In this document: in pieces, positions 2,826 through 42,639 of the stretch | Numbering within the stretch: the first letter of the stretch is position 1 | Layout of the letters: each line of letters begins with the position of its first letter | IMG/VR virus record: IMGVR_UViG_2875722834_000005 | Span: 1-49,359 of that record | DNA: 49,359 nt | Source of the DNA: a virus | Taxonomy: Duplodnaviria; Heunggongvirae; Uroviricota; Caudoviricetes | Reading direction: 5' to 3' (one strand) | Position numbers and translations under genes: made by a program | The notes under the pieces: generated by a model | Database searches by the model: none | What the model was told of the DNA's origin: nothing | What the model saw: only the letters and a program-made list of their open reading frames with translations

Positions 2826-4094
2826 TCAGCTCGGGCTACTGTCAGCACCACCACCTTGTTGTGCGGCTTTCAGTTTCTGGTTGAACACCGAACTTTCTGG
2901 CATTTCGAGACGCAGGTCTATCCATCGCCCGGCGGGAATATCCATCGGCTCACCTGCGACGATCATAGCGGTTTCACTGTCAAAGCGACGTTTAAAAACC
3001 GACACGATAATGGTTCCGCCCTGAGTGGATTGCGTCTCCACAAAACACAGGCGGTTGCCATTTGAATCCTGTGGGATTTCAATAGTCCAGCCGTCAGCGT
3101 GTAGCCCGACAGCGCCACGTATTTCATATACGCCAGTAGCAATTTTTTCCGCTGTAACGCCTTCCGCCTCCATATTGGTCGCGGCACAGCCAGAAAGTGA
3201 AAAATCTTCGAGAAAACCAGCAGGCATGCCTCTGTGATCATTGGTAAGTCGCACAACAGGTGAGGCTTTTTTTATAAACCCGTTTGCATCAACAGTGGTT
3301 GTCAGATTGTCCAGCAACAGACGGGTTGTTGTAACCCCCGCAGTGCCGTATCCGGACATTACACGGATGCCCCTGGTAAAATAATGCACGCTCATGAGAA
3401 ACCACGTATCGTTTGCTCCCACCCATAATGTGGGCGCACTTTGTGGAATTTCATAGAATTCACCCGTCATTGGCAATATGTTCTGTAGGGTTGCAAGACT
3501 GAATCCCCTCATTTTTGCCACGACGTTATCAATCACAGATTCACTGGTCGAATTATATTCGGATACAGGAAATCCTTTTTTCAAACCAAGCCCTTCACGT
3601 GCGCTGGCCTGGGTAGTACCGCCAGTACCGCCCTGCTTTACAGACAATGCTGTGGTCAGCCCTTCCAGACTGGTGATGTCTTTATTTACCCCTTTTTTTG
3701 CCATGCTGCCAATGGAGGGGATGCTCATGCTTACACCGTTGATGGTGACCGTGATCATCTGGTTGGCTGTAGTGCTGGCGAACGCCTCCCACGCGCCAAT
3801 ATTCTCGTCGTACTCTTTGATGAGCTGTGACATGGCCTGCGCCAGGCCGTCGACTGAGATATTGTCCGACACAAGGATTCCATACTTCTGGCCGCTCAGC
3901 GCCGGGGAAACTGCTGGCGTAACCGTCATTGACGTGGCGCTGTTCACGGATGAAATCTGAAACAGCTGCACCGGGTTAGACATCACGATAATCGTCTGGC
4001 CAGCGCGGACCTGGCTGGCGGGAGCTGTCCAGTTTGTGCCCGTCCCGGTGGCGGTATTTCCATTAATGGCGATGGTGCCGGTGTTATAAAGCAT
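2826..4094 (-). CDS. Tail fibre / receptor-binding protein
   Basis: 422 aa; N-terminal region with the QGGTGGTTQASAREGLGL motif common to tail fibre and tailspike anchors; sits at the distal end of the tail module; start taken at the second ATG, which has a GGAG RBS. Confidence 0.7.
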   Translation of the reverse strand: MLYNTGTIAINGNTATGTGTNWTAPASQVRAGQTIIVMSNPVQLFQISSVNSATSMTVTPAVSPALSGQKYGILVSDNISVDGLAQAMSQLIKEYDENIGAWEAFASTTANQMITVTINGVSMSIPSIGSMAKKGVNKDITSLEGLTTALSVKQGGTGGTTQASAREGLGLKKGFPVSEYNSTSESVIDNVVAKMRGFSLATLQNILPMTGEFYEIPQSAPTLWVGANDTWFLMSVHYFTRGIRVMSGYGTAGVTTTRLLLDNLTTTVDANGFIKKASPVVRLTNDHRGMPAGFLEDFSLSGCAATNMEAEGVTAEKIATGVYEIRGAVGLHADGWTIEIPQDSNGNRLCFVETQSTQGGTIIVSVFKRRFDSETAMIVAGEPMDIPAGRWIDLRLEMPESSVFNQKLKAAQQGGGADSSPS

Positions 4095-4111
4095 ATTTTC
4101 TCCAGGCAATA

Positions 4112-4135
4112 AAAAAACCCCGCCGGAGCGAGGTT
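4112..4135 (-). terminator. Rho-independent terminator-like hairpin with U-run between lipoprotein gene and tail fibre gene
   Basis: Minus-strand CCTCGC-TCCG-GCGGGG stem-loop followed by TTTTTTTATT. Confidence 0.5.
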
Positions 4136-4154
4136 TATGTTTAAGCGTAGTGGG

Positions 4155-4388
4155 TTATTTGCAGGTTGTTTCGGTAAATGTATTCGCACTTACCCAGCGC
4201 CAGCTGAAAGGATATCCAGCCCGGTACTGCGTCTGGTTGTTTTGTTTACGCACACCGTAAATCTGAACCGTAGTTTCCTGACCGCCAACGATTGCAGTGC
4301 CGCTGCAAACTGGTTCCTGTTTCTCAATTACGCCAGCGCATCCTGTAAGCATGACAGCGCCTGCCATGCAGATAATCAGTTTTCTCAT
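4155..4388 (-). CDS. Small lipoprotein, possibly Cor-type superinfection-exclusion protein
   Basis: 77 aa with signal peptide and lipobox LTGC; located between the tip-fibre J gene and the tail fibre gene, as cor is in phi80/N15-type phages. Confidence 0.55.
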   Translation of the reverse strand: MRKLIICMAGAVMLTGCAGVIEKQEPVCSGTAIVGGQETTVQIYGVRKQNNQTQYRAGYPFSWRWVSANTFTETTCK

Positions 4389-4499
4389 TTTGATAGTATC
4401 CAGAGGAATTCAGTATCTTAGACGATACCAATACAATTCTGGTGGGTATAATTGATTGGATAGATCAATATTATGTTATTGATCGCTAAAAACGATCAA

Positions 4500-5174
4500 T
4501 CAATCATAGGCCGCTGTATTTATGGCGGTTAATGAAATGCCAGTATTCGTTCCCCCTCCAGGTGAACCTGCCCCAGTGGAGGTCCCCCCTGCGTTTATCC
4601 TCGTATTGGCCCCGTCAAACCTGCATGAAGAATAAGCATTTATCGTGTAGATAGTCGGAGGCTGGGTTGAATTATTCACAATGATGGTCTGACCCAACTG
4701 AGCAGGTGCAACGGCCCATGACCCGCTCAGCGTCTGGTCAATATTTATCCCGCCGTTTGCACCAGGCGTGCCAACCGTCTGCAGGTCTGATAGCACACGG
4801 GACTCATTAGTTAACACAAGCTTTCCGCTCGCATCCCATATTGCCAAACCCCATTTCGGTAATATCTGCGGGAATATGGCAAAAACGTACGCCGTTAAAG
4901 TGAAACTTTGGTTGTAGGGATTAACACCAGCAACATACACATTACCGCCGTTCCTGTAAGACATAACCGGAGTGGGCTGTGCTGTATTGGTGGTTTTGAT
5001 AAAAACCATCACTGGGTAATCAGCGTTTAAAGCGATATTTTGAGCAACCTGCTGAGAACTGCCATTCGCGGATGAATTGAAGGTATACTTCCCGTAAAGA
5101 CAGAAAGGCGTTGATTGTGGCGTTACAAAGGGATTCCCGTTATCCATTAATATCATCGCGCCAAATTCGGCCAT
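4500..5174 (-). CDS. Hypothetical tail-region protein (224 aa)
   Basis: ORF immediately downstream of J-like gene; Gly/Asn/Thr-rich; no recognised family. Confidence 0.5.
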   Translation of the reverse strand: MAEFGAMILMDNGNPFVTPQSTPFCLYGKYTFNSSANGSSQQVAQNIALNADYPVMVFIKTTNTAQPTPVMSYRNGGNVYVAGVNPYNQSFTLTAYVFAIFPQILPKWGLAIWDASGKLVLTNESRVLSDLQTVGTPGANGGINIDQTLSGSWAVAPAQLGQTIIVNNSTQPPTIYTINAYSSCRFDGANTRINAGGTSTGAGSPGGGTNTGISLTAINTAAYD

Positions 5175-5476
5175 TATGCTTTCTCCATGAAAACGACCAC
5201 CTCACATTTAGAGGCCGGGTAATTACCCAGGCCCACAGAAGAGGCTGCGGTTACGGTTATTGTGTTCCCTGACGCGACAATGCTCCTCCCTACGCTGTTA
5301 CCTCCTTCATCAAGTGAGAGCGCAAAACCGACCTTCATTCCTGAGGGTACAGTGAAAGACCAGCTGCCGGAGTTTTGTCCGGCGGCAAGTTGTATACGTC
5401 CAACAACGGAAACGGGCTTGATTCCGTAGTTGTTGGGGTTTCCCGAAGCATCCCAGGTCTGTATTCCATAAGCCAT
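5174..5476 (-). CDS. Hypothetical tail-region protein (100 aa)
   Basis: ORF directly after J; stop/start overlap with the next gene; N-terminus resembles that of the 224-aa neighbour. Confidence 0.5.
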   Translation of the reverse strand: MAYGIQTWDASGNPNNYGIKPVSVVGRIQLAAGQNSGSWSFTVPSGMKVGFALSLDEGGNSVGRSIVASGNTITVTAASSVGLGNYPASKCEVVVFMEKA

Positions 5477-5477
5477 A

Positions 5478-8400
5478 TCAGAACACCCCCGTTAATCGGC
5501 CAACCTGCACTCTCAGAACGTTGTTGCCATCCTTGACGCTGATTGTCTGGTTGGTCTGCTTCATGGCTCCCTCCCCAGCTGTCGAACCGTAGTTCTCAAA
5601 CGTCCCGGACTTATCCAGTTTCCAGCCAACAGAGCCGGCAACATAATTGTTCGACTGGATGTAATTGCCAATTTTTGCATTGCTTATGGTCCCGTCGCCA
5701 ATGACTGTATCCCTGATAATGGCCTGGCCATTCTGGATAACGAACGGCAGTGTTACAGTCCCGCCGACCATAGTAGTCACGGCGAAACGGTCTGCCAGGA
5801 AGATTACCTGTGACTGCATGCCGGAGGGTGTATTTTGAACCCCAATACCCATCCCGGCAGCGTAATACTGCCCGTTACTGGACACCCCCACCTTGATGTT
5901 ATACATCGCGCTGAGGTTACCGTTTACATCTGCTATAGCCTGTGCGTTGACGTTTATCGCTGCACTGTTTTCGCCTGATTTAACAGTCAGAGTGTTGATT
6001 TTTGTTGCCGAAGCCTGGGTGAAATCAGCAAGAGTTTCTGTCAGGTCCGTTGAGTTAGAGATATTGCCACCAGCTTCTGCATCCAGTGTGACCAGCGCGC
6101 GTGCGACCGCCTGGCTGGTATCGGCAATCGTAGTATCCACTCTGTCTATACTGGCACTGTTCCCGGCGTTCGTGGCGGTCTGCGAGCGACGGCTTACCAC
6201 CTGCGCCAGCCCATTCTGAATAATCGCGATTGCCGAGTTCTTCACTCCTCCCGTCATGCCGTCCATCGACACAGAAATCTCGTCGATCTTCACTTCGGCC
6301 TGAGCCAGCCCGTCAGCGTTCTCCAGGATGTCTTTCGCCTGCTGCTCGAGTTCGTCGGCATGGTTTTTAATTTCGTCAGCCATGCCAGCAATTTTTTCAT
6401 TGCTGTCCACCGCGTTCTCGATCAGGTCTTTGAACGTATCGGAGTCTTTAATTTCCTCCAGAATCACATCTGTGATATCGGAAACATCGATGCTGGCCTG
6501 TCCTCGCACCCATTCTGTGTACCCTGATTCGTTGCCGCTGCGGTCCACCAGCTGCGCGCGGTACCAGAAAATCTGCCCAGCCTTAAGGCCCATCTGCTGA
6601 TATTTGCGCTGCGGGTAAGGCACATCGGCCAGCAGCATGGCATCGTCTTCAGTACCGGTCAGGCTGTACTGAATTTCCGTCTTCAGCGTGTCGTCGGTAT
6701 TCGCCTGGAATCCCCAGTTCAGCTCGATACCGAACACCACGTTTTCAGAGGCGATAAAGCCAACCGGCTTCGGTGGATTGCCCACTTTACCCGTCAGCGT
6801 TTTCTCTTCTGAATAGCCCCATCCGGATGAAATTTCTGCGGCATTGATTGCGCGCACCCGCACCAGGTAGCGCCCGGCATAAATCCCCGGGACGTCGAAT
6901 GACGTGGTGGAGGTGCGCGGCACGTTAACCCAGTTCCCGTCATTGCGACGCCACTGTGCCTCATACGCGATAGCATTTTTCGCCTGGTCCCAGCTGACGC
7001 GCATGGTCTCAACGCTGATATTCTGCTGAACGACAGAAAACGAACTGATCGCGATATTAGCTGGCGGGGACTGATTACCGGGCGGAATTACACTTATTGG
7101 CCGCTGGTCGATAATGGCACCGGTATCGATACGCGCATATTTATCCGGATCGTGCAAAGCGCCAGCAATCGAATACGTTCCGTCATTATTATCCGTAACG
7201 CTGATAACGCGATATTGCTGCGCGTAAAGCTCTTCAGACTCGACAATCCACACCGATTCCACTGCAGGTGTTTCGCTGTATGCCGTTGTCACAGTGACGG
7301 CCCGCCCGTTTACGCTCTGTATCGTCCTGCTCTGCGATGCGCCGGACGGAAGGTTAACCATCAGACGGCTTCCGGGAGCGGCTGCCGAATCACGATCAAG
7401 CGTGATAACGCGACCGTTAACCGCGCTGATGCGCCCTCCCATCACTTTTCCGGAAAGCAGCTCATCGGCAACCGCGATGATATAACCAGGCTGTGGGATC
7501 TTACCGTCAAGACCAACATCGAACGACACGATGCGATCCTTGTTATTGGTCAGGATACCCCAACGTCCTTTGCGGTTTGCCTCTGACTGCCGGGTACAAC
7601 CAATGGCTGTCATTTCGAGCTGATTTGTGCCAAAGCGAGCAACGAGATCCTGCTCAAATACAGGCTCCATCGCATCCGCGTAGGCATTACCCGGATCGGA
7701 CCAGGAAACCAGTGCCGTGGTATAGCGGGTTTTGGTGGTGCTGCCCGAATAGGTAAAGCGCCCATTAACCACGTTTGCACGCGTGTAGCTGTAATCCACA
7801 TCGCGGGGCATATCCGCCAGCGCAACGATTTGATCGCCACCCCAGTACGTCATGCCCCGGAATATCGCCGCAAAATCACGTAACACGGTATAGGCGTCAT
7901 TCCTCTCCTGCACGTACACGTTACAGGTATAGCGAGGCTCAGTGCCGCTACCGCCTTTACCATCAGGAACCGGCTGATCGCAATATTGCGCGACCTGATA
8001 AAGCGTCCATTTATCAATATTGGCCGCCGTCAGGCGATTGCCCAGCCCAAAGCGGTCGCTCACCACCAGATCGTAAAAAATCCAGGCTGGATTATCCGTC
8101 CACGCCCACTTAAACGCCCCTGTCCATGTGCCGCTGTAGGTGCGGGTCTCCGGGTCATACGTATCCGGCACGCGGATAACGCGCCCGCGCGGTTCACAGG
8201 AAATTTGCGGGATGGAGCCGTTAAACTGGCTTGAGTCGAATTCGATGTACAGCAGCGCGGTATTTGGATAACGCAGTTTGGCGTCAATAACCTCTGTGTA
8301 GCTCTGCAGCGTCATCGTGTCGCCAATTTTCGCGCTGTTGGCATCCGCCGTAAGCTTACGCAGGCGCACCGTCCATGTACTGCCTGCCTGCGGTAAGTCG

Positions 8401-8933
8401 ATACGGTGGCTGCGTTCGTAGCCTGACGTGGTTTTCCCGGTGACGCTGGTATTAAGCACGGTCTGCCAGGTACCGCCATCTGTCTGCAGATCGATAGCGT
8501 AATTAATCGAATAGCCGACCAGATCGCCGTCGTCCTCCTGTTTAAACAGTGATGGCCATTTGAGGCGCAGACGAATGGCTGACAGCTGGGTGTTGGTAAA
8601 GGTATGCGTCCAGGCCGTAGCGCTTGACACTTCGGTGCCCACGCTGATTTCATTTTCTGTGCCGGGGATACCCTGAATATATTTTTGTGCCTGAGTCCCC
8701 GGACGAAATTCCCACGCCACGCCACTGAAGTTTTGCGATCCGTCTGCATTCTCCAGTGGCGTGCCATCGAGATAGATATCCTTCGCCGTCAACTGCCCTG
8801 CAAATTCGCCCTCTCCCAGTGCAACAAGAATTTTGGCTTTCGCTACGGACTGGAGATCGTCTGGTTGTTCAGTCGGGGTGCGTGAACTGGAGCTGCCGCC
8901 CTTGCGGCCTCTAATCGGAGTAGATGTAGCCAT
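5478..8933 (-). CDS. J: Tail tip attachment / host specificity protein J
   Basis: 1151 aa; N-terminal region matches lambda J; correct position after I. Confidence 0.9.
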   Translation of the reverse strand: MATSTPIRGRKGGSSSSRTPTEQPDDLQSVAKAKILVALGEGEFAGQLTAKDIYLDGTPLENADGSQNFSGVAWEFRPGTQAQKYIQGIPGTENEISVGTEVSSATAWTHTFTNTQLSAIRLRLKWPSLFKQEDDGDLVGYSINYAIDLQTDGGTWQTVLNTSVTGKTTSGYERSHRIDLPQAGSTWTVRLRKLTADANSAKIGDTMTLQSYTEVIDAKLRYPNTALLYIEFDSSQFNGSIPQISCEPRGRVIRVPDTYDPETRTYSGTWTGAFKWAWTDNPAWIFYDLVVSDRFGLGNRLTAANIDKWTLYQVAQYCDQPVPDGKGGSGTEPRYTCNVYVQERNDAYTVLRDFAAIFRGMTYWGGDQIVALADMPRDVDYSYTRANVVNGRFTYSGSTTKTRYTTALVSWSDPGNAYADAMEPVFEQDLVARFGTNQLEMTAIGCTRQSEANRKGRWGILTNNKDRIVSFDVGLDGKIPQPGYIIAVADELLSGKVMGGRISAVNGRVITLDRDSAAAPGSRLMVNLPSGASQSRTIQSVNGRAVTVTTAYSETPAVESVWIVESEELYAQQYRVISVTDNNDGTYSIAGALHDPDKYARIDTGAIIDQRPISVIPPGNQSPPANIAISSFSVVQQNISVETMRVSWDQAKNAIAYEAQWRRNDGNWVNVPRTSTTSFDVPGIYAGRYLVRVRAINAAEISSGWGYSEEKTLTGKVGNPPKPVGFIASENVVFGIELNWGFQANTDDTLKTEIQYSLTGTEDDAMLLADVPYPQRKYQQMGLKAGQIFWYRAQLVDRSGNESGYTEWVRGQASIDVSDITDVILEEIKDSDTFKDLIENAVDSNEKIAGMADEIKNHADELEQQAKDILENADGLAQAEVKIDEISVSMDGMTGGVKNSAIAIIQNGLAQVVSRRSQTATNAGNSASIDRVDTTIADTSQAVARALVTLDAEAGGNISNSTDLTETLADFTQASATKINTLTVKSGENSAAINVNAQAIADVNGNLSAMYNIKVGVSSNGQYYAAGMGIGVQNTPSGMQSQVIFLADRFAVTTMVGGTVTLPFVIQNGQAIIRDTVIGDGTISNAKIGNYIQSNNYVAGSVGWKLDKSGTFENYGSTAGEGAMKQTNQTISVKDGNNVLRVQVGRLTGVF

Positions 8934-8951
8934 ATTGCGCCCATAAAAAAG

Positions 8952-8967
8952 GCCACCCGAAGGTGGC
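8952..8967 (-). terminator. Hairpin GCCACC-TTCG-GGTGGC followed by U-run, located between I and J
   Basis: Seen directly; an identical element recurs at 28458-28475. Confidence 0.4.
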
Positions 8968-8986
8968 TTGTAAAAAGGTTTGTTAA

Positions 8987-9574
8987 CTACTGCTGATCTT
9001 CGACATAAATTCCGGCAGAAATAATTGCCCCGCCGATTCTCCGGCGGCCGTACAGGAGCGGAACCGGGTAACCCTGTGCGGCGGTATTTGTGACTCCGCC
9101 GAACGCGTATGAGGCGCGGTTATCTGAGCTCTGTTTGCTGGCCAGCCCTGTAGCCTGAGGGGATATCATCTGAACTACCCCCCCCAGCGTTATGGACGCA
9201 CCAGCAGCAAACATCATATTGCTGGCAGCTATACTCAGACCTGGCATCCAGATCGATGCAATCACTAATACTGCGCCCAGGATAGTTTGAATCAAACCGG
9301 CTTTTTTACTCCCGATGATTACCGGGACAATGCGGATAACATCGCCGGTAACCGGGAAACCGAGGTCATCCACACCGATGTTTTTTTTACCCTTAAATAC
9401 GGAGTATGTGAGCCCACGGCGCTGGCTGGAAATCATAAACTGCTCAAAGCCCGGAATAGTCTTTGCTAGCGCCACTCCCGCCTCGCTTACACGGGAAATC
9501 AGGCGGTGGTGAATTTTACCGAATGTTTTCCCGAGCACGCCGCCAAGCTCAATCCGGGTCATTACTTCCTGCAT
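8987..9574 (-). CDS. I: Tail assembly protein I
   Basis: 195 aa, position and hydrophobic C-terminal region as lambda gpI. Confidence 0.8.
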   Translation of the reverse strand: MQEVMTRIELGGVLGKTFGKIHHRLISRVSEAGVALAKTIPGFEQFMISSQRRGLTYSVFKGKKNIGVDDLGFPVTGDVIRIVPVIIGSKKAGLIQTILGAVLVIASIWMPGLSIAASNMMFAAGASITLGGVVQMISPQATGLASKQSSDNRASYAFGGVTNTAAQGYPVPLLYGRRRIGGAIISAGIYVEDQQ

Positions 9575-10293
9575 GTTTCACCTGCCATTACATCTTTATA
9601 ACGAACGATTTTCATCGTGCGCTCCTGCCAGTATCCGCCATAAGGAACACGTTGACTCAGATGCCCATAAAGATGGTGCAGCAGCATGTTACCCTCCAGT
9701 AAAATCCCGGCATGATTCCACTTATCGGCCTGCACCTGCATGATGACGAGGTCTCCTTCCTGAGGCGGGCCATCAAACTCCCTGAATCCGCACTCGTACC
9801 AGCACTCCTGATAGAAATTGTCCGGGTAGTCGTTTTCCCACCAGGGATAATCTACCCGGTAATCGTGGAGCTCGATACCGTGGGTCTGCCGGAAATAGCT
9901 CATTACCAGACCCCAGCAATCGAAGTGGCCAAGCACGAACGGGCGCTCCAGCAGCGGCAGTTCCCCGCGCGGCTGAATAGTGCGTAAATCCCCCTCCGGC
10001 CAGCTCACAATATGCCAGGGCAGCAGCGTTGCATCACACTGCGCCTTATCCAGCTCGCTGGCCTGCGTCGTCGCATCAGGATGGCTGTGAACAATGGCCA
10101 CCACCGTCCCCCAGTCTTCTGCCGCTGCGTAATCTTCGGGGGACAGGTGAAAATGTTCAGTCGGCTCTGCTGCGAGATTACGACAGGGAAAATAGCGCTC
10201 AACCCGGCTTTTCTGTGCCACCACGCCGCAGCACTCTCGCGGATATTCCGCTGCAGCGTGTGCCATGATGGCATCAATGGTTTTCTGACGCAT
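9562..10293 (-). CDS. K: Tail assembly protein K (JAB/MPN plus NlpC/P60-like)
   Basis: Strong match to lambda K (AIMAHA..ECCG..VAQKSRV..YFPCRN); HSHPD metal motif; start set at MRQKTIDAIM. Confidence 0.85.
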   Translation of the reverse strand: MRQKTIDAIMAHAAAEYPRECCGVVAQKSRVERYFPCRNLAAEPTEHFHLSPEDYAAAEDWGTVVAIVHSHPDATTQASELDKAQCDATLLPWHIVSWPEGDLRTIQPRGELPLLERPFVLGHFDCWGLVMSYFRQTHGIELHDYRVDYPWWENDYPDNFYQECWYECGFREFDGPPQEGDLVIMQVQADKWNHAGILLEGNMLLHHLYGHLSQRVPYGGYWQERTMKIVRYKDVMAGETCRK

Positions 10294-29612: not shown

Positions 29613-29886
29613 GATTTTGTCCCTCGTTATAGCTACATCTAGCTCAAAAACAAAACAACAAACACAAGATGTAGTGATTTACGGTCTTTAAATACACGAA
29701 AAGCCTCAAAACGAGGCTTTAAAAGAGTCTTTTTGATAAAGAACTAAACAGACTATAGCGAGTCAATTACAGATTTGACAAGTAAAAAAGGGATTAAAAG
29801 CTCATAAAAACGGCTTTTTTGGATTATTCATCATCTTTTTTGATGCACGTAACAATCCAAATATAAAAACAAAGTTTTGACAAAAA

Positions 29887-29904
29887 ACCCGCTCGATGGC
29901 GGGT
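29887..29904 (-). terminator. Hairpin ACCCGC-N6-GCGGGT with flanking A/T runs about 65 nt downstream of the Q-position gene (late-region regulatory element)
   Basis: Seen directly; on the minus strand followed by TTTTTTG. Confidence 0.45.
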
Positions 29905-29970
29905 TCTTAATTCTTTGTCGACCTACGAAGCTATGGCGACGATATCAGATTTACATGAAATATATGCGTT

Positions 29971-35312: not shown

Positions 35313-36085
35313 CGAATAAGACCCCGTTCAACGCCCCTGCGGTACTCTTCACATAACCATTGCGCCGGTGTTAGCGCGCCCAGTGATGCGGCATTTGGCA
35401 TGCAGCCAAAGCTTTTCCCTTCAGGGTGATAGCCAGTTCTGCGGCTCTCGTGAGTCGTGGGGATCACCTCTTCGTGATACTCAAGCGCGACTACCGGGGC
35501 AGGAATTTGCTCACCTGATGCCACCTTCAAAGCCCATTCTTCAAGCTTTTTGGCTGCGTACTTTTCGGTCTCGACTTCGCTGAGCTGGCGCTGGTACATT
35601 GCCCGGCGGGTGTCGGTCACCACCCAATACATGACCGGGTGCGTCCATGGGAAGTTTTCAGCGCCACCAACATGAACGCCCTTCTCGCGGCTGTAGCGGT
35701 GAAACTCGTTCATCACATCCACGATACCCACGCCCAGCACTGAGTTGCTGTCTTTGCACCACTTTATGAATTGCCCCGGCGACGGCCAGAACGGGGATGC
35801 GCTTGCCCTGGCATGGCGGACACCTGCCGATAACTGCTCTCTGGTTCGAATTCCGTTCTCAGAGAACGCCGCGATCCACTGGCGCTTTGCCGTCTTCTCG
35901 TCAGCGTCGGTTTTGAGGTTGGTCTGTGATGCCGCCGGGAATATCTGTTTCAGCTGGCGAAAGAGCGAGTCGACCAGGTTCTCGGCCTCGATGTTGATAA
36001 CGTTTTTCGGATCGTAGCTGCCGGACATCCGGGCCAGCGCATCACCGTCACGGTTCTGAATTGCTGCCATCAGTTGCATTGTCAC
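35309..36085 (-). CDS. P: Replication protein P (helicase loader)
   Basis: Matches lambda P blocks (RQW..AF.ENGI; PF.PSPGQF..WC). Confidence 0.8.
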   Translation of the reverse strand: MTMQLMAAIQNRDGDALARMSGSYDPKNVINIEAENLVDSLFRQLKQIFPAASQTNLKTDADEKTAKRQWIAAFSENGIRTREQLSAGVRHARASASPFWPSPGQFIKWCKDSNSVLGVGIVDVMNEFHRYSREKGVHVGGAENFPWTHPVMYWVVTDTRRAMYQRQLSEVETEKYAAKKLEEWALKVASGEQIPAPVVALEYHEEVIPTTHESRRTGYHPEGKSFGCMPNAASLGALTPAQWLCEEYRRGVERGLIR

Positions 36086-36834
36086 AGGAAGTCCTCCCAG
36101 CCTTCACGGCTATTCCAGTGCGGGGTTTCTGGCTCACTGCGGCTGCGCTTTGATGCCAGGGGGTTAACGCGGGCGTTTCGGATCCAGACGCGGAATGCTG
36201 AATTCCAGTCAATCAGGGTTGTGCCTCGCGCTGTGTGGTAGTCACGGAAGTTGAGCAGCTCGGTTTCTATGCTGACCCCTTTCTCGGCAGCCATGGCGAT
36301 ATGCTCTGCAGAGGGTTTGAATTGAGCGGGAAAAGGAATTCCACTGCCAGTCGGCAGGCCCATTCTTGTCTTCGCTGCTTCGCTCATAAATCCTTCGCGC
36401 CCAGAGAGAGAGTTAGGTTCATTGACTGGTTCAAAAGAGTGACTGATTCTGGGTGCAGCTCCTGCACTACCCCCTAGTGAATCTCCTGCACTAGGTAGTG
36501 AATCTCCTGCACTAGGTAGTGAATCTCCTGCACTAGGTAGTGAATCTCCTGCACTAGGTAGTGAATCTCCTGCACTAGGCAAGGTGAGGATGTAGATGTT
36601 TGTAGAATTGCCTTTCGGCCCCTTCCTGAAGACTTTTTTCAGCAATCCTGACTGGCAAAGATCATCAATGTGGCTCATGACTGAACGCTTGCTGATTTCG
36701 CACTGGTCAGCGATGTATTGATAGCTAGGCCAGCACTCACCCTGATCGCTGGCATTGTCAGCAAGCTTCAGGAGAACGAGCTTACGTAATGGGTTGCCGA
36801 CCTTAATTTGCATGGCTTTCACCATTAACATCAT
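36082..36834 (-). CDS. O: Replication initiator O-like protein (HTH N-domain, iteron-encoded linker)
   Basis: Position between cII and P; HTH N-terminus; contains 21-bp iterons; start approximate. Confidence 0.7.
36459..36580. repeat. Origin-type iterons: 21-bp direct repeat CTCCTGCACTAGGTAGTGAAT, 4 perfect plus 2 imperfect copies, inside the O-like gene
   Basis: Seen directly; encodes (LPSAGDS)5; analogous to ori-lambda iterons within O. Confidence 0.7.
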
Positions 36835-37012
36835 GCTCACTATGAGTTCTCCTGTTCTGCTTGAAGATGATTTCCACACACACATACACGCACTCATCAC
36901 AGATACATGCGCCATCTCCTGTGATGATCGTTGCAACGTCGTTATTGGTTTTCCCGCAAAACGAGCATTTGTGAGTGGGATGTGGGTTTGCTTTTCCTGA
37001 CTGGTTTGGCAT
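36803..37012 (-). CDS. Small protein with ClpX-type C4 zinc-binding domain
   Basis: [29 protein letters not shown] aligns with the ClpX N-terminal zinc-binding domain (CSFCGK..ICDECV); lies between cII and O. Confidence 0.55.
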
Positions 37013-37033: not shown

Positions 37034-37333
37034 TTAAAAATCCATCGTTATTTGGTCTGATCGCTCGGTTGCCGCCGGGCGATTTTTCTTTGTGAGCACC
37101 GCAGCTACTTCTCTTGCCAGCCGCGCCATATCGTCATCAACGACACCCCATTCCAGAACTGCCAGTAGCATCGACAGTTTAGGCAGCATGCTTTCCTTCC
37201 AGCGGGTAATACCCGACTTATCCATCCCCAATGCCTTTGCAACGTTAGAGGCACCGCGAATAGCAATCTGATTCAGGATCCAGGACTCAATTTTTCGAGC
37301 CTGGGCTTTGTTTCGGGTAGTTGTGTTTTCCAT
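37034..37333 (-). CDS. cII: Transcriptional activator CII
   Basis: Near-identical core to lambda CII (SMLLAVLEWGVVDDDMARLAR). Confidence 0.9.
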   Translation of the reverse strand: MENTTTRNKAQARKIESWILNQIAIRGASNVAKALGMDKSGITRWKESMLPKLSMLLAVLEWGVVDDDMARLAREVAAVLTKKNRPAATERSDQITMDF

Positions 37334-37419: not shown

Positions 37420-37608
37420 TTACGGGGTTTTGCTGTGCGGGAAAGGCTTGATTTCTTCAGCCTTGATTTTCCCGTCGGGCAGTCGGTTGATAAAAATCTG
37501 ACGCCCAACCCTAATTGCCTTGCTGATTGCCGTCTGGTGTACACCGATAGCGTCAGCTGCTTTGGCCTGACCTACCTCGCCAACAAACTCAGCTAAAGAA
37601 ATCTTCAT
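37420..37608 (-). CDS. cro: Cro repressor
   Basis: 62 aa; GQAKAADAIGVHQTAISKAI matches the lambda Cro HTH; KPFP tail. Confidence 0.85.
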   Translation of the reverse strand: MKISLAEFVGEVGQAKAADAIGVHQTAISKAIRVGRQIFINRLPDGKIKAEEIKPFPHSKTP

Positions 37609-37638: not shown

Positions 37639-37677
37639 AATACCAGAAGTATTACATAAAGCAATACCTGCGGTATT
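37639..37677. promoter_or_regulatory. OR operators (two clear AATAC-N5-GTATT sites) within the PR/PRM region
   Basis: AATACCAGAAGTATT (37639-37653) and AATACCTGCGGTATT (37663-37677) between cro and cI starts. Confidence 0.6.
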
Positions 37678-37711: not shown

Positions 37712-38422
37712 ATGGAAAAGAAAAAGATTCTCACCCCCGCTCAAGTGGCTGATTCACAGCGTTTAAAAGCCCTTTACGAAGCGAAGAAAAAAGAACTGGG
37801 TATTACTCAGCAATCCATTGCGGACGCGCTGGACATTTCTCAGGGTGCCGTCGGCCATTACCTCAATGGAAGGAATGCCTTAAATACAGCGGTAGCATCG
37901 GTCTTTGCCAGGCTTCTTGGGGTTAGTGTCTCTGATTTCAGCCCGTCACTTGCGAAGGATATCTCTGATATGAGCTCGGTGGCGTCGGAAAATACTTCTT
38001 TCGCAGGGCATTATTCACCTGGCTCAAAATATCCGGTGATTAGCAAAGTTCAGGCGGGCGCCTGGTGTGAAGCTGTTGAGCCGTACACCCTTAAAGATAT
38101 CGACCTTTGGCTTGAATCAGATGCTCACATTCAGGGGGAGGCGTTCTGGCTGCAGGTTGATGGTGACTCAATGACGGCGCCAGCTGGCTTGAGCATTCCT
38201 GAAGGAACCTTTGTCCTCTTCGATACTGGTCGGGAGGCGATCAACGGAAGCTTGGTAATAGCAAAGCTATCCGATTCTAACGAGGCGACTTTTAAGAAGC
38301 TGGTGATCGATGGTGGGCAGAAGTACCTGAAGGGCCTTAACCCGCAATGGCCACTCGTGCCGATTAATGGTAACTGCCGTATCATTGGTGTAGCTGTAGA
38401 GACGAAGCTGCGGCTGGTCTGA
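37712..38422 (+). CDS. cI: CI repressor (HTH N-domain, S24 self-cleaving C-domain)
   Basis: Lambda CI-like blocks (KKELGITQQSIAD; FSPS; VQAG; GDSM; TFKKL); no leader before ATG, as for PRM transcripts. Confidence 0.9.
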   Translation: MEKKKILTPAQVADSQRLKALYEAKKKELGITQQSIADALDISQGAVGHYLNGRNALNTAVASVFARLLGVSVSDFSPSLAKDISDMSSVASENTSFAGHYSPGSKYPVISKVQAGAWCEAVEPYTLKDIDLWLESDAHIQGEAFWLQVDGDSMTAPAGLSIPEGTFVLFDTGREAINGSLVIAKLSDSNEATFKKLVIDGGQKYLKGLNPQWPLVPINGNCRIIGVAVETKLRLV

Positions 38423-38571
38423 TCGGCAAGGTGCTCTGGTCGGCGCATAGCTGGTGAAAAAATTATTTAATGCAGTGTATTAGCTGATTGTAACCCCATG
38501 TAACATCTTGCCGTCACCATTTCGGTGGTTAGATTTTTAATAAAAAAAACAAATGTATAGCAAGGTTTTTT

Positions 38572-39051
38572 ATGGATAAAATTAATTACCCACCCCTGTT
38601 TGAGCCACGGTTCCATGACATGGATGAAGCTGGATTAAAATCGTATTGTGTCGATTGCTTTCCTTCATCATCCAGGCGAGGCATGCTATACTGTAATTTT
38701 ATACAGCTACTCGAATCTATTCGAGAATTATCTGCTCAATATGGCTGTTTTACAGAAATATGGGTTGATGGTTCATACACCACGTCTAAACCAGAGCCTG
38801 ATGATATTGATATTTTGTTGGTATGTGACTATAGCAAGATAAACTCAATACCTGTCATGCTTCGGGGCCGCGTCGATAATTTGCTTGACCGAAACTACAT
38901 CAAACAAAACTACAAAATTGATGTCCTACTACTCATGAAGAATTTAGATGACCCTAACTATGATTATGAGTACTGGCGTAGCTACTGGCGCGGTTGGTTT
39001 GGTTTTGATCGCAGTGAAAACCCGAAAGGGTTAGTGAGGATTTTTTTATGA
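38572..39051 (+). CDS. Minimal nucleotidyltransferase-fold protein (159 aa), first gene of operon in rexAB-equivalent position
   Basis: GS-x8-DDIDILLV with downstream KIDV fits the Pol-beta NTase hG[GS]..DxD..D signature; AT-rich; downstream of cI. Confidence 0.55.
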   Translation: MDKINYPPLFEPRFHDMDEAGLKSYCVDCFPSSSRRGMLYCNFIQLLESIRELSAQYGCFTEIWVDGSYTTSKPEPDDIDILLVCDYSKINSIPVMLRGRVDNLLDRNYIKQNYKIDVLLLMKNLDDPNYDYEYWRSYWRGWFGFDRSENPKGLVRIFL

Positions 39052-39980
39052 ATGATAAATCAATGTTTAAAAATTGCGATAAACGCATTGATTTCATTCA
39101 AAAAGAAGTCGATGCAATGAAGCAAAACAAAACCAGGTCCTTTGCTGACATGCTTCTTTATCGCTCCATGGATTCTCATCTGAGCGATTTGAAGGCCGAA
39201 AAATTAAAGCAAGATAGTCGGCACCCACTTATCGATTTTTTTGAGCTGCGGCTGAAAGGCTCTGAGGTTGACTTTGGCTCTATTCCTTTAGAGCTGCTTG
39301 GGGCTATTTCAACAAATCTTGCAGCGCTAATACAAAGAGCAACACACAAAATTGCCTCAGGCAAGGACTCAAAAAAAGTTCCCTACGACGTGAAAAGCTC
39401 CTTAAACCTCAGGCTGGCTGATTTATCCCCTGGGTCTACAAAATTGGGCGTCACCTTCTCTACAGGAATAGCAGAATTAGTAGAAACAGTACCCAGCAAG
39501 GCTGTAAAAGGCATATTCGATTTGTTGTTAAGCGATGACGACAACAACTTCATGAATCACGTCGCTGAAATTGGATACAATTCCACTGTAAGCCTTAAGA
39601 GAATCGTAGAGGAATGTGATAAACACAACTTAACATTTGATGCAAGTTGGACCGGTCCATTTAGTAATGGCACCAAGGTGGCAACTATTGACTCCAATAA
39701 AATTAAGTACTTGGTGAGTAGACTTACATCAACCATTTCATCCCCTCCCATTACTGAAACGGTTACAGGCGAACTGGTCGTTCTATCCAAATATGGGAAG
39801 CTGGAGCTTGATGTTGGTGGTGAACATTTAAAGGCTTCCTATCCGATTGAAATGCTAGATTTAATACAAAAAAAACACAAGGTCGGACAGATTGTTTCTC
39901 TTTTAGTGGAGACTACTGAGATTCACAATGATCGCATAGGTCTGTACCGTAAAAACCATCTTGTTAAATCGGTTCTTTAA
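39048..39980 (+). CDS. Hypothetical 310-aa partner protein, translationally coupled to the NTase-fold gene
   Basis: Start ATG overlaps upstream TGA (ATGA); no recognisable motifs; followed by a strong terminator. Confidence 0.55.
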   Translation: MNDKSMFKNCDKRIDFIQKEVDAMKQNKTRSFADMLLYRSMDSHLSDLKAEKLKQDSRHPLIDFFELRLKGSEVDFGSIPLELLGAISTNLAALIQRATHKIASGKDSKKVPYDVKSSLNLRLADLSPGSTKLGVTFSTGIAELVETVPSKAVKGIFDLLLSDDDNNFMNHVAEIGYNSTVSLKRIVEECDKHNLTFDASWTGPFSNGTKVATIDSNKIKYLVSRLTSTISSPPITETVTGELVVLSKYGKLELDVGGEHLKASYPIEMLDLIQKKHKVGQIVSLLVETTEIHNDRIGLYRKNHLVKSVL

Positions 39981-39987
39981 TATCTCA

Positions 39988-40014
39988 CCCGGCCACCGCG
40001 CCGGGTTTTTATTT
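39988..40014 (+). terminator. Rho-independent terminator after the two-gene operon
   Basis: CCCGGC-CACCGC-GCCGGG followed by TTTTTATTT. Confidence 0.65.
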
Positions 40015-40212
40015 ACCCTTCCGCACCATCTCAGCCGCATGCCTGTTAGCTCCCTTCCCTATCACGTTTCCTGTTTCCTTCCGGTACTGCTCCAGCTTGT
40101 CGATGATGTTTTGCTGGGTCATAGGTAAATCTGCCAGTGACAACTCCATGACCGCCCGCCCCATCGCCTGAATTTTCATGCTTATACGCTCTTCATCCAG
40201 AACCATGCACAT
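40009..40212 (-). CDS. Hypothetical small protein (67 aa) antisense to the PL direction (weak call)
   Basis: ORF only; between the operon terminator and OL. Confidence 0.25.
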   Translation of the reverse strand: MCMVLDEERISMKIQAMGRAVMELSLADLPMTQQNIIDKLEQYRKETGNVIGKGANRHAAEMVRKGK

Positions 40213-40274
40213 CCCTCCTGCTGTTTTTTTAAGCGTAGCACTGGTATTTACAAAAATAAAATCACATCAAATTC

Positions 40275-40343
40275 ATACTCTTAGTATTAATCAAAGATTT
40301 ATTAATACTGGCGGTATTGCTATATATTAATACCGCTAGTATT
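40275..40343. promoter_or_regulatory. OL operators (three ATAC-N5-GTAT type sites) / PL region
   Basis: ATACTCTTAGTAT (40275-40287), AATACTGGCGGTATT (40304-40318), AATACCGCTAGTATT (40329-40343); same consensus as the OR sites. Confidence 0.55.
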
Positions 40344-41667: not shown

Positions 41668-42639
41668 ATGAGCGAAGTAACGGACTTAACTGTTATCGAA
41701 ATCAAGCCGGAGCAGGCGCCAGTGCTTTACGTAGCTGGCGGCCTTGACGCTTATCTCGAGCAAATTCGTCAGGCAGTAAACGAAGTGCCGGACCTGTCCA
41801 CGAAGAAAGGCCGTGACCGTGTCGCCTCTCTGGCGGCGCAGGTGTCCCGCAGTAAGACGGCAATCGAAAAGCCTGGCCGTGAGTACCTGAAGCGACTGAA
41901 AGAGGCTGTGCGTCCGGCTGAGGCTGAAATTAAGCGATTCGTTGATGCCTGCGACGAGTTGCGCGATGCGACCCGCCGCCCATTAACCGAATGGGAAGCC
42001 GAGCAGGAACGCATTAAGGCTGAAGAAGCCATGAACGCGCTGCACGCCGAAGCGCTGGAAATGAACATCAAGTTCGATCAGGAGCTGGCGGCCAAGTTCG
42101 AAGCGGACCACGAAATGGCTCTGTTGATGAACAAGGATTACGACCGCGACCGCGAAGAGCAGCGCCTTCTGGCGGAACAGGCTCAACGGGAACGTGACGA
42201 GCGGCTGAAGCGGGAAGCGGCAGAACAAGCCCGCCGCGATGCCGAAGCGAAACACAAAGCTGAGATTGAGGCCGCAGCGCGCCGTGAAGCTGAAGAGAAA
42301 GCGCGTGCAGAAGCTGCGGAACGCCAACGCATTGAAACGGAGCAGCGTGCGGCGCGTGAGAAGCAGGAAGCGGAAGCCCGGGCGGAACGCGAAAAAGCCG
42401 CGGCGGTTGAAGCCGAGCGCCTGAAGGCAAAACAGGCCGAAGATGCTCGCCTGGCCGAAGAGAAGCGCCTCGCCGATGAACAGGCAAAGCGCGAAGCTGA
42501 CGTGAAGCACCGCAAGACGGTCGGCACCAACATCGTTAACGCGCTCACCAGCCACACCAGCTTAACCCGCGAGCAGGCTATCGAAGTGCTCACCGCCCTG
42601 AAAGATGATCTGATCCCCTGCGCGAAAATTCATTACTGA
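41668..42639 (+). CDS. Hypothetical coiled-coil protein with Ala/Glu/Lys/Arg-rich repeats (323 aa)
   Basis: Long ORF just upstream of gam; strongly charged low-complexity central region. Confidence 0.55.
   Translation: MSEVTDLTVIEIKPEQAPVLYVAGGLDAYLEQIRQAVNEVPDLSTKKGRDRVASLAAQVSRSKTAIEKPGREYLKRLKEAVRPAEAEIKRFVDACDELRDATRRPLTEWEAEQERIKAEEAMNALHAEALEMNIKFDQELAAKFEADHEMALLMNKDYDRDREEQRLLAEQAQRERDERLKREAAEQARRDAEAKHKAEIEAAARREAEEKARAEAAERQRIETEQRAAREKQEAEARAEREKAAAVEAERLKAKQAEDARLAEEKRLADEQAKREADVKHRKTVGTNIVNALTSHTSLTREQAIEVLTALKDDLIPCAKIHY

Follow-up and report, generated by a model that had tools for sequence, protein, structure and literature searches.

A mobile two-gene PDC-M63 cassette between the repressor gene and OL of a lambdoid prophage: predicted domains, varied partners and a possible role in phage exclusion

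RexAB and BstA occupy the repressor-to-N slot of lambdoid prophages. A pair of genes, here called A and B, lies in this slot, between a cI-type repressor gene and the leftward operators, in the virus record IMGVR_UViG_2875722834_000005 (Caudoviricetes), of which the whole stretch of 49,359 nucleotides was analysed (the window). Is this pair a system by which the lysogen excludes other phages, and if so how might it work? The pair was found to be a self-contained, horizontally mobile two-gene module, in which a nucleotidyltransferase (NTase) is followed by a larger partner, and a plain member of PDC-M63, an already listed but unvalidated candidate family. It is probably an exclusion, abortive-infection or toxin-antitoxin-like (TA-like) module expressed by the lysogen. 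What is new in the present analysis is a predicted oligonucleotide/oligosaccharide-binding (OB) fold in B, the exact boundaries and the mobility of the cassette, and a helical hairpin that seems to serve as an adaptor joining DUF6932 enzymes to varied partners.

A catalogued and mobile pair

The initial annotation of this DNA took the pair to be undescribed, which it is not. Protein A matched Pfam DUF6932 (E 8.6e-24), no Pfam family was found for B, and NCBIfam gave no match for either protein. The PADLOC profile PDC-M63A matched A over residues 1-158 of 159 (E 7e-40) and PDC-M63B matched B over residues 23-304 of 310 (E 7.5e-45), in adjacent genes on the same strand; the locus in the window is no different from PDC-M63 as PADLOC describes it, and relatives are embedded in type I restriction-modification (RM) operons. 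The proteins also matched PHROGs 9194 and 6603, neither of which has a known function. In the sequenced phage mEpX1 a copy of the cassette with 99.4% identity fills the cI-to-N interval, and its two genes are annotated as hypothetical. PDC denotes a set of 145 untested "phage defence candidates" gathered through guilt-by-embedding in BREX, DISARM and type I RM operons, and PDC-M63 is the cassette FAM_00167>>FAM_00523 in the tables of that study (Payne et al., bioRxiv 10.1101/2024.01.29.577857). The DefensePredictor paper left PDCs out. The full-text literature yielded nothing on DUF6932 and no functional study of mEpX1, and searches on NTases, OB folds and phage defence surfaced Clover, Panoptes and CBASS (cyclic oligonucleotide-based antiphage signalling), none of which matches the pair. 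A Pectobacteriaceae Tn-seq paper was set aside, as it deals with AbiE and not with the pair.

The cassette and its two boundaries are laid out as follows.

37712-38422, + strand: cI-type prophage repressor, 236 amino acids, Pfam HTH_3 and Peptidase_S24 (context, outside the cassette)
38423-38571, + strand: cassette leader, 149 nt, near-invariant in seven loci with differing cI genes
38572-39051, + strand: gene A, 159 amino acids, DUF6932/PDC-M63A nucleotidyltransferase of the pol-beta superfamily
39048-39980, + strand: gene B, 310 amino acids, PDC-M63B partner without a Pfam family, PHROG 6603
39987-40016, + strand: intrinsic terminator closing the cassette, a 7-bp stem, 6 of its pairs G-C, and then a T-run
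40274-40343, no strand assigned: three OL operators (context), AATAC-N5-GTATT at 40274, 40304 and 40329

What had been claimed from the sequence about this layout was borne out in all respects. The reading frames, their lengths and the 4-nt overlap at 39048-39051, where the TGA stop of A and the ATG of B share the letters ATGA, are as first described, and both are real genes with numerous full-length homologues of constant length. The pair is AT-rich (G+C of 0.37-0.44 in the cassette against 0.47-0.55 in the flanks) and ends in a strong terminator before OL/PL, with a G+C-rich hairpin and T-run at 39987-40006 and the three OL operators beyond. The proposed rexAB-equivalent position between cI and OL/PL was likewise confirmed, with the HTH_3/Peptidase_S24 repressor upstream and the operators downstream. 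The operator motif AATAC-N5-GTATT was matched five times against 0.9 expected, a number reached by none of 100 shuffles. Homology links the OL stretch to the CI operators and pL annotated in phi80, and the DNA directly upstream of it (40014-40275) is 82% identical to phi80 DNA extending up to the first of the CI operators annotated before pL; it follows that the pair occupies exactly the repressor-to-OL slot. The leader carries the ribosome-binding site of gene A, AAGG. A regulatory RNA in the leader was considered and dropped, as the fold was no better than that of shuffled sequences (z -0.68) and an Rfam scan of the 149 nt gave no match.

The cI-to-N interval had been called a recognised cargo hotspot, and it is documented as such, with rexAB in lambda and bstA in BTP1 (PMC8585504). 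The slot in phi80 is filled likewise: between cI and OL, at 587-1453 of its record (L168, JX871397.1), this phage has other cargo, protein 40A, with an acetate-kinase-superfamily domain.

Evidence of mobility came from the sharp junctions of the cassette, its low G+C, its sparse occurrence and the lack of a recurrent third gene beside it. Near-identical copies were found behind 11 different repressor types in 20 loci, types being defined as clusters below 80% identity. In a seven-locus alignment the left junction falls at the cI stop codon, with homology beginning at ~38416-38423, and the right junction lies just beyond the terminator at ~40013, where homology to mEpX1 stops. A remnant of the 3' end of a lambda-type cI (GTGGCCTGAAGAGACGTTTGG, encoding WPEETFG and the stop) accompanies the cassette behind unrelated cI genes in three loci (L083, L084 and L088; alignment columns 150-175) and thereby marks the recombination junction. 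The allele is present in 18 of 5426 complete E. coli genomes.

The linkage of the two genes is close. On IMG/VR contigs a full-length B stands directly behind A in 76 of 78 relatives, mostly with a 4-nt overlap, and 55 of 77 are immediately preceded, in the same orientation, by the gene of a cI-like repressor. The cI-to-N position is also taken by homologues in Providencia, at an identity of just 46%, and a Rac-like prophage of E. coli has the pair between the repressor and kilR. A search beyond prophages, restricted to one genome per species and using the alignment of A or its RSYWRGWFGF motif as the search pattern, yielded 72 loci in Proteobacteria, Bacteroidota, Firmicutes, Nitrospirae, Planctomycetota, Chloroflexi and Parcubacteria. 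Both genes were intact in 120 of the 143 informative loci, among which B was clearly split beside an intact A five times, against two cases of a damaged A beside an intact B. Lookups started from B found A upstream in four out of four; A without B occurs, and B without A was never seen. The immediate neighbours at the 72 genomic loci comprised 136 Pfam families among 131 proteins, the commonest being helix-turn-helix repressors and type I RM genes, and no third gene recurred beside the pair. One distant pair lies within a defence island with type I RM genes, a phospholipase D (PLD) nuclease and NmeDI. Conservation of the pair as a unit is thus well attested, in the same slot of Escherichia, Providencia and other enterobacterial prophages and elsewhere in defence islands and type I RM operons.

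Predicted domains and the partners of A

Judged from its sequence and predicted structure, A is an active-looking but divergent NTase of the pol-beta type. It is so called on account of its exact, invariant motif and of the pol-beta matches of its relatives, 28 of 42 of which were also hit by the Pfam models NTP_transf_2, Polbeta and pol-beta palm. Three features of A stand out.

38770-38811, + strand: catalytic motif of A, G67-S68...D78-I-D80, invariant in 80 homologues
38920-38922, + strand: D117, third carboxylate of A, conserved in at least 90% of 42 sequences
38977-39006, + strand: family-specific C-terminal motif of A, R136-S-Y-W-R-G-W-F-G-F145, invariant in 42 and largely conserved in 80 sequences

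The motif reads G67-S68-x9-D78-I-D80-I, and with D117 it corresponds to the superfamily pattern hG[GS]-x9-13-Dh[DE]h plus a third carboxylate; the residues that do not vary among the 80 homologues are G67, S68, D78 and D80. The first product had been annotated as an NTase-fold protein, and both the fold and an intact active site are upheld. The structure model (predicted local distance difference test, pLDDT, of 96.8) has the alpha/beta fold of NTases, and its nearest structures are minimal NTase (MNT) antitoxins (8xeh, 5yep, 1no5) and aminoglycoside O-adenylyltransferases. Sequence searches of the PDB, run with individual sequences as well as the profile of A, returned noise or weak pol-beta matches and no solved sequence relative of A. 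The C-terminal RSYWRGWFGF motif may bind the substrate or the partner. Some 562 DUF6932 relatives were collected, and A is a stand-alone protein of ~145-160 amino acids. Separately, a 569-nt metagenome contig (P0163) holds a fragment that matches both CYTH (PF01928) and DUF6932, in which a triphosphate-handling domain may be fused to the NTase.

The partner had been said to contain no recognisable motif, a statement that has to be revised, since its predicted structure (pLDDT 83; predicted template modelling score, pTM, 0.74) ends in an OB fold. Three parts can be told apart in the model.

39048-39221, + strand: B residues 1-58, helical hairpin (helices 10-25 and 32-56), the proposed A-docking module
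39231-39731, + strand: B residues 62-228, alpha/beta domain, containing a pair of [DE]LRLxG strand motifs, and G129-S130 in a low-confidence loop
39732-39977, + strand: B residues 229-310, OB fold, a C-terminal beta-barrel

The C-terminal domain is a five-stranded beta-barrel with a helix between strands 3 and 4, as an OB fold should be, and resembles SSB, RPA and RuvA; according to the model it may, together with the alpha/beta domain, bind single-stranded DNA or RNA. The alpha/beta domain had no significant structural neighbour and matched PDC-M32A of PADLOC weakly, while a Foldseek comparison of B with the PDB gave nothing significant (best E 0.018, with a weak adenylyl-cyclase/palm-like theme that is not trusted). 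The B family comprises 268 clusters at 50% identity, of about 300-320 amino acids and without fusions, and a Pfam scan of 103 diverse relatives found no recurrent family. Ser130 is the sole residue invariant in these 103 sequences, next to G129 and a loop of low pLDDT; E/D63, R68, D/N120 and R122 are well conserved in the same set and fall in the two [DE]LRLxG strand motifs. At residue 212 a Trp is present in 96 of the 103 family members and an Ala in the protein of the window. No membrane segment was found in A or B, the maximum 19-residue hydropathy of B being 1.38.

The hairpin, as far as can be told from sequence comparison, is a separable module that always lies in the gene directly after A. 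When a model of it was run against 12,767 stop-to-stop segments from 165 loci, 150 matches were obtained and all but one, which was spurious, fell in the open reading frame (ORF) following A. These frames encode proteins of several kinds. Six loci of Bacteroidota or Ignavibacteria have no canonical B, and A stands there inside a type I RM operon in the order hsdM/S - A - hsdR (L056, with its operon at 3759-10044, and L058, L063, L068, L071 and L076); the HsdR-like gene there begins at the stop codon of A, and its first ~55 residues match the hairpin of B from residue 1-5. Pfam found no known nuclease domain in residues 60-225 of these hairpin-bearing HsdR proteins. Two Chitinispirillia loci encode a mini-B of 133-135 amino acids (L042, 7444-7845, and L046, 7444-7851) that consists of the hairpin and OB fold only and so is without the whole alpha/beta domain bearing Ser130. 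In a Blastocatellia locus (L045) the hairpin is followed by tetratricopeptide repeats (TPR), and hairpin-only ORFs of 72-74 amino acids are possible in three loci, with weak matches (E 0.04-0.09). Since the hairpin heads every type of partner, A is the constant element and the partner the variable one, and most of the partners handle nucleic acid. Gene order and domain shuffling together suggest that the hairpin docks A onto its partner, and an adaptor of this kind would also explain the attachment of the same enzyme to restriction enzymes. A parallel is offered by PrrC, an anticodon nuclease that is embedded in the EcoprrI type I RM operon and held latent by EcoprrI. The likeness is that A lies between hsdM/S and hsdR in some Bacteroidota, where the hairpin seemingly links it physically to the R subunit; the difference is that A is an NTase whereas PrrC is an ABC-ATPase/nuclease, and that the partner in the window is B and not a restriction enzyme.

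Proposed working and competing explanations

The reading favoured overall, which is given about an even chance of being correct, is that of a mobile PDC-M63 module made in the lysogen, in which the NTase A has an obligate partner, B, that docks A and binds single-stranded nucleic acid, and in which the output of A leads to exclusion or abortive infection. Its place in the cargo slot next to the repressor gene of a lambdoid prophage makes expression in the lysogen most probable, and the simplest assumption from that position is that the cassette is read through from PRM. The hairpin of B would dock A, so that B tethers the enzyme and either keeps it latent or directs it. The OB fold and alpha/beta domain would bring A to single-stranded DNA or RNA, or would withhold it until such nucleic acid appears. 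The trigger might be the meeting of B with nucleic acid from an incoming phage, or an attack on B by a phage protein, whereupon A, the only evident enzyme of the pair, would nucleotidylate a nucleic-acid 3' end or a protein, and phage replication would be blocked or the cell arrested. That the pair has a role in conflict is supported by its occurrence in a defence island, by the hsdM/S - A - hsdR embedding, which is the very kind of embedding by which PDCs were defined (bioRxiv 10.1101/2024.01.29.577857), and by the cI-to-N slot that it has in common with rexAB and bstA.

Several observations weigh against this reading. When PDC-M63AB was deleted from an E. coli NILS69 prophage, plaquing efficiency and liquid growth were unchanged with 10 virulent phages, a panel that the authors themselves call narrow; the defence role put forward by the initial annotation is a reasonable idea, but the only test of it on record was negative. 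No classical killing domain (nuclease, pore, TIR or dNTPase) was found in A or B. The proposed contact of the hairpin with A draws solely on gene neighbourhood and domain shuffling. The invariant Ser130 and the conserved E63, R68, D120 and R122 hint at an activity or a ligand site in B for which the favoured model gives no explanation. The leader between cI and A contains a weak hairpin at 38510-38529, followed by an A/T-rich run, and a scan of it found no sigma-70-like promoter above threshold.

Comparison with known systems narrows the field. With RexAB and BstA the pair shares its position downstream of the repressor, the strand, the terminator before OL/PL and a likely expression in the lysogen. 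BstA is a single protein of ~300 amino acids with an N-terminal KilA-N DNA-binding domain. Homology to BstA was rejected, B having no KilA-N match in Pfam, and so was homology to RexAB, for PADLOC gave no Rex match, there is no membrane segment as in RexB, and position alone is shared. AbiEii and MenT are pol-beta-type NTases that act as growth-arresting toxins, and with these the idea that the NTase itself is the effector is shared; the pair differs from AbiE, however, in lacking any PADLOC or Pfam match to AbiE/DUF1814, in having a gene order opposite to abiEi-abiEii, and in that B is without a winged helix-turn-helix antitoxin domain. Nor is it a form of CBASS, which is recognised by a CD-NTase (cGAS/DncV-like nucleotidyltransferase) of ~300 amino acids together with a signal-activated effector.

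The single negative experiment makes a role outside defence quite possible, if on the improbable side. The pair would then be an addiction or stabilisation module of the prophage or a regulator of DNA transactions, which might modulate restriction subunits or the recombination or replication intermediates of phage or host, and its place beside cI would be no more than a permissive cargo slot. The slot does carry cargo without a known defence role, such as protein 40A of phi80, the coupling of A to HsdR through the hairpin could mean regulation of restriction, and the OB fold resembles those of replication and recombination proteins. Yet the pair also occurs far from prophages, in defence islands and RM operons of many phyla, and it is rare, patchy and horizontally mobile as defence genes are; moreover, 10 virulent phages in one host are a narrow test.

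It is unlikely that the pair follows the type VII TA logic of MntA and HepT, with A as an antitoxin that nucleotidylates a toxic B and with Ser130, in its flexible Gly-flanked loop, as the acceptor. Unmodified B would then block replication or translation by binding single-stranded nucleic acid and would be freed by phage-induced shut-off or depletion of NTPs. MNT-HEPN pairs usually have the NTase gene first with an overlap, and here too a small pol-beta-type NTase is encoded first and its gene overlaps that of the partner by 4 nt. The nearest structures of A are MNT antitoxins and O-adenylyltransferases that act on hydroxyls, Ser130 is the sole invariant residue of B, and MntA is known to oligoAMPylate HepT (PMC13000451). 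That B is the gene more often broken, and that it never occurs without A, would also fit. Against this, no HEPN match was consistent over the 103 B relatives, no HEPN motif or known toxin domain was found in B, and its fold of hairpin, alpha/beta domain and OB barrel is a different one. A is also highly conserved beside partners that lack the Ser130 domain (mini-B, HsdR and TPR proteins), and it is therefore unlikely that this serine is its conserved substrate. Several of the B disruptions come from metagenome-assembled genomes, and as B is twice the length of A part of their excess is expected by chance. The double deletion says nothing about toxicity.

In Hailong the NTase HalB makes short DNA and is paired with a DNA-gated effector (review PMC13276650), and a guard of this type, in which A constitutively makes a short oligonucleotide that is held by the OB fold of B until phage nucleases or SSB-type proteins remove it and so activate the complex, is attractive for that OB fold and for the shared features of two genes, a small stand-alone NTase, a partner apparently built for single-stranded nucleic acid, and a location in prophages and defence islands, but is very unlikely, since neither a membrane segment nor any other effector domain is present in B, which leaves nothing obvious to switch on, and the HsdR and TPR partners are left unexplained. 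In Hailong the partner of the NTase binds single-stranded DNA and is a channel (HalA), whereas B is soluble in the model and has no channel; HalB is not among the listed structural neighbours of A.

To return to the favoured reading of a lysogen-made module with a docked NTase, a wider proposal can be attached to it, though a doubtful one. The DUF6932 enzyme and the ~58-residue hairpin could constitute a previously unrecognised "enzyme plus adaptor" pair set on interchangeable partners that handle nucleic acid. In the prophage this could amount to an immune module of a new kind, expressed by the lysogen, with an OB-fold sensor that controls an NTase effector or holds an oligonucleotide made by the NTase, and its mechanism would be unlike those of HEPN-MNT, AbiE, CBASS and Hailong.

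The surrounding immunity region and implications

The cassette forms part of a lambdoid immunity region within the window, in which cro and cII are read leftward and the repressor rightward. Its remaining elements are the following.

37034-37333, - strand: cII
37420-37608, - strand: cro
37639-37677, no strand assigned: OR operator pair between cro and cI (context), AATAC-N5-GTATT at 37639 and 37663

Some further features of the window are recorded here in their own right. Between the cassette terminator and OL, convergent with gene B, there is an ORF of 67 amino acids (40009-40212, - strand; PHROG 3975, unknown function), the DNA of which is conserved in HK639, phi80 and Enterobacter phages and which is not annotated in the phi80 record. 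Downstream of PL an ORF of 323 amino acids (41668-42639, + strand) has a long, highly charged central part rich in Glu, Arg, Ala and Lys, and hypothetical proteins of like size occupy the equivalent position in related prophages (L082, 6688-7656, and L083, 7252-8223). A replication-initiator-like ORF (36082-36936, - strand) contains five tandem PSAGDSL heptads, encoded by 21-nt direct repeats, which resemble origin iterons lying inside the gene as in lambda O. Finally, 29883-29955 on the - strand matches the isrJ family of Hfq-binding small RNAs in Rfam with 58.7 bits against a gathering score of 37.

In the sampled enterobacterial prophage contigs the cassette is among the commoner unexplained cargoes of the repressor-to-N slot, and its family, spread across many bacterial phyla, stands on a public list of untested defence candidates. 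Experimental handles on it are provided by D78/D80 in A and by Ser130 and the hairpin in B. Should the pair have no activity against phages, which is what the one published test points to, it would urge caution about predictions made from guilt-by-position or guilt-by-embedding. To our knowledge no characterised system combines an NTase-based mechanism with an OB-fold partner, and the pair, if active, would add such a mechanism.

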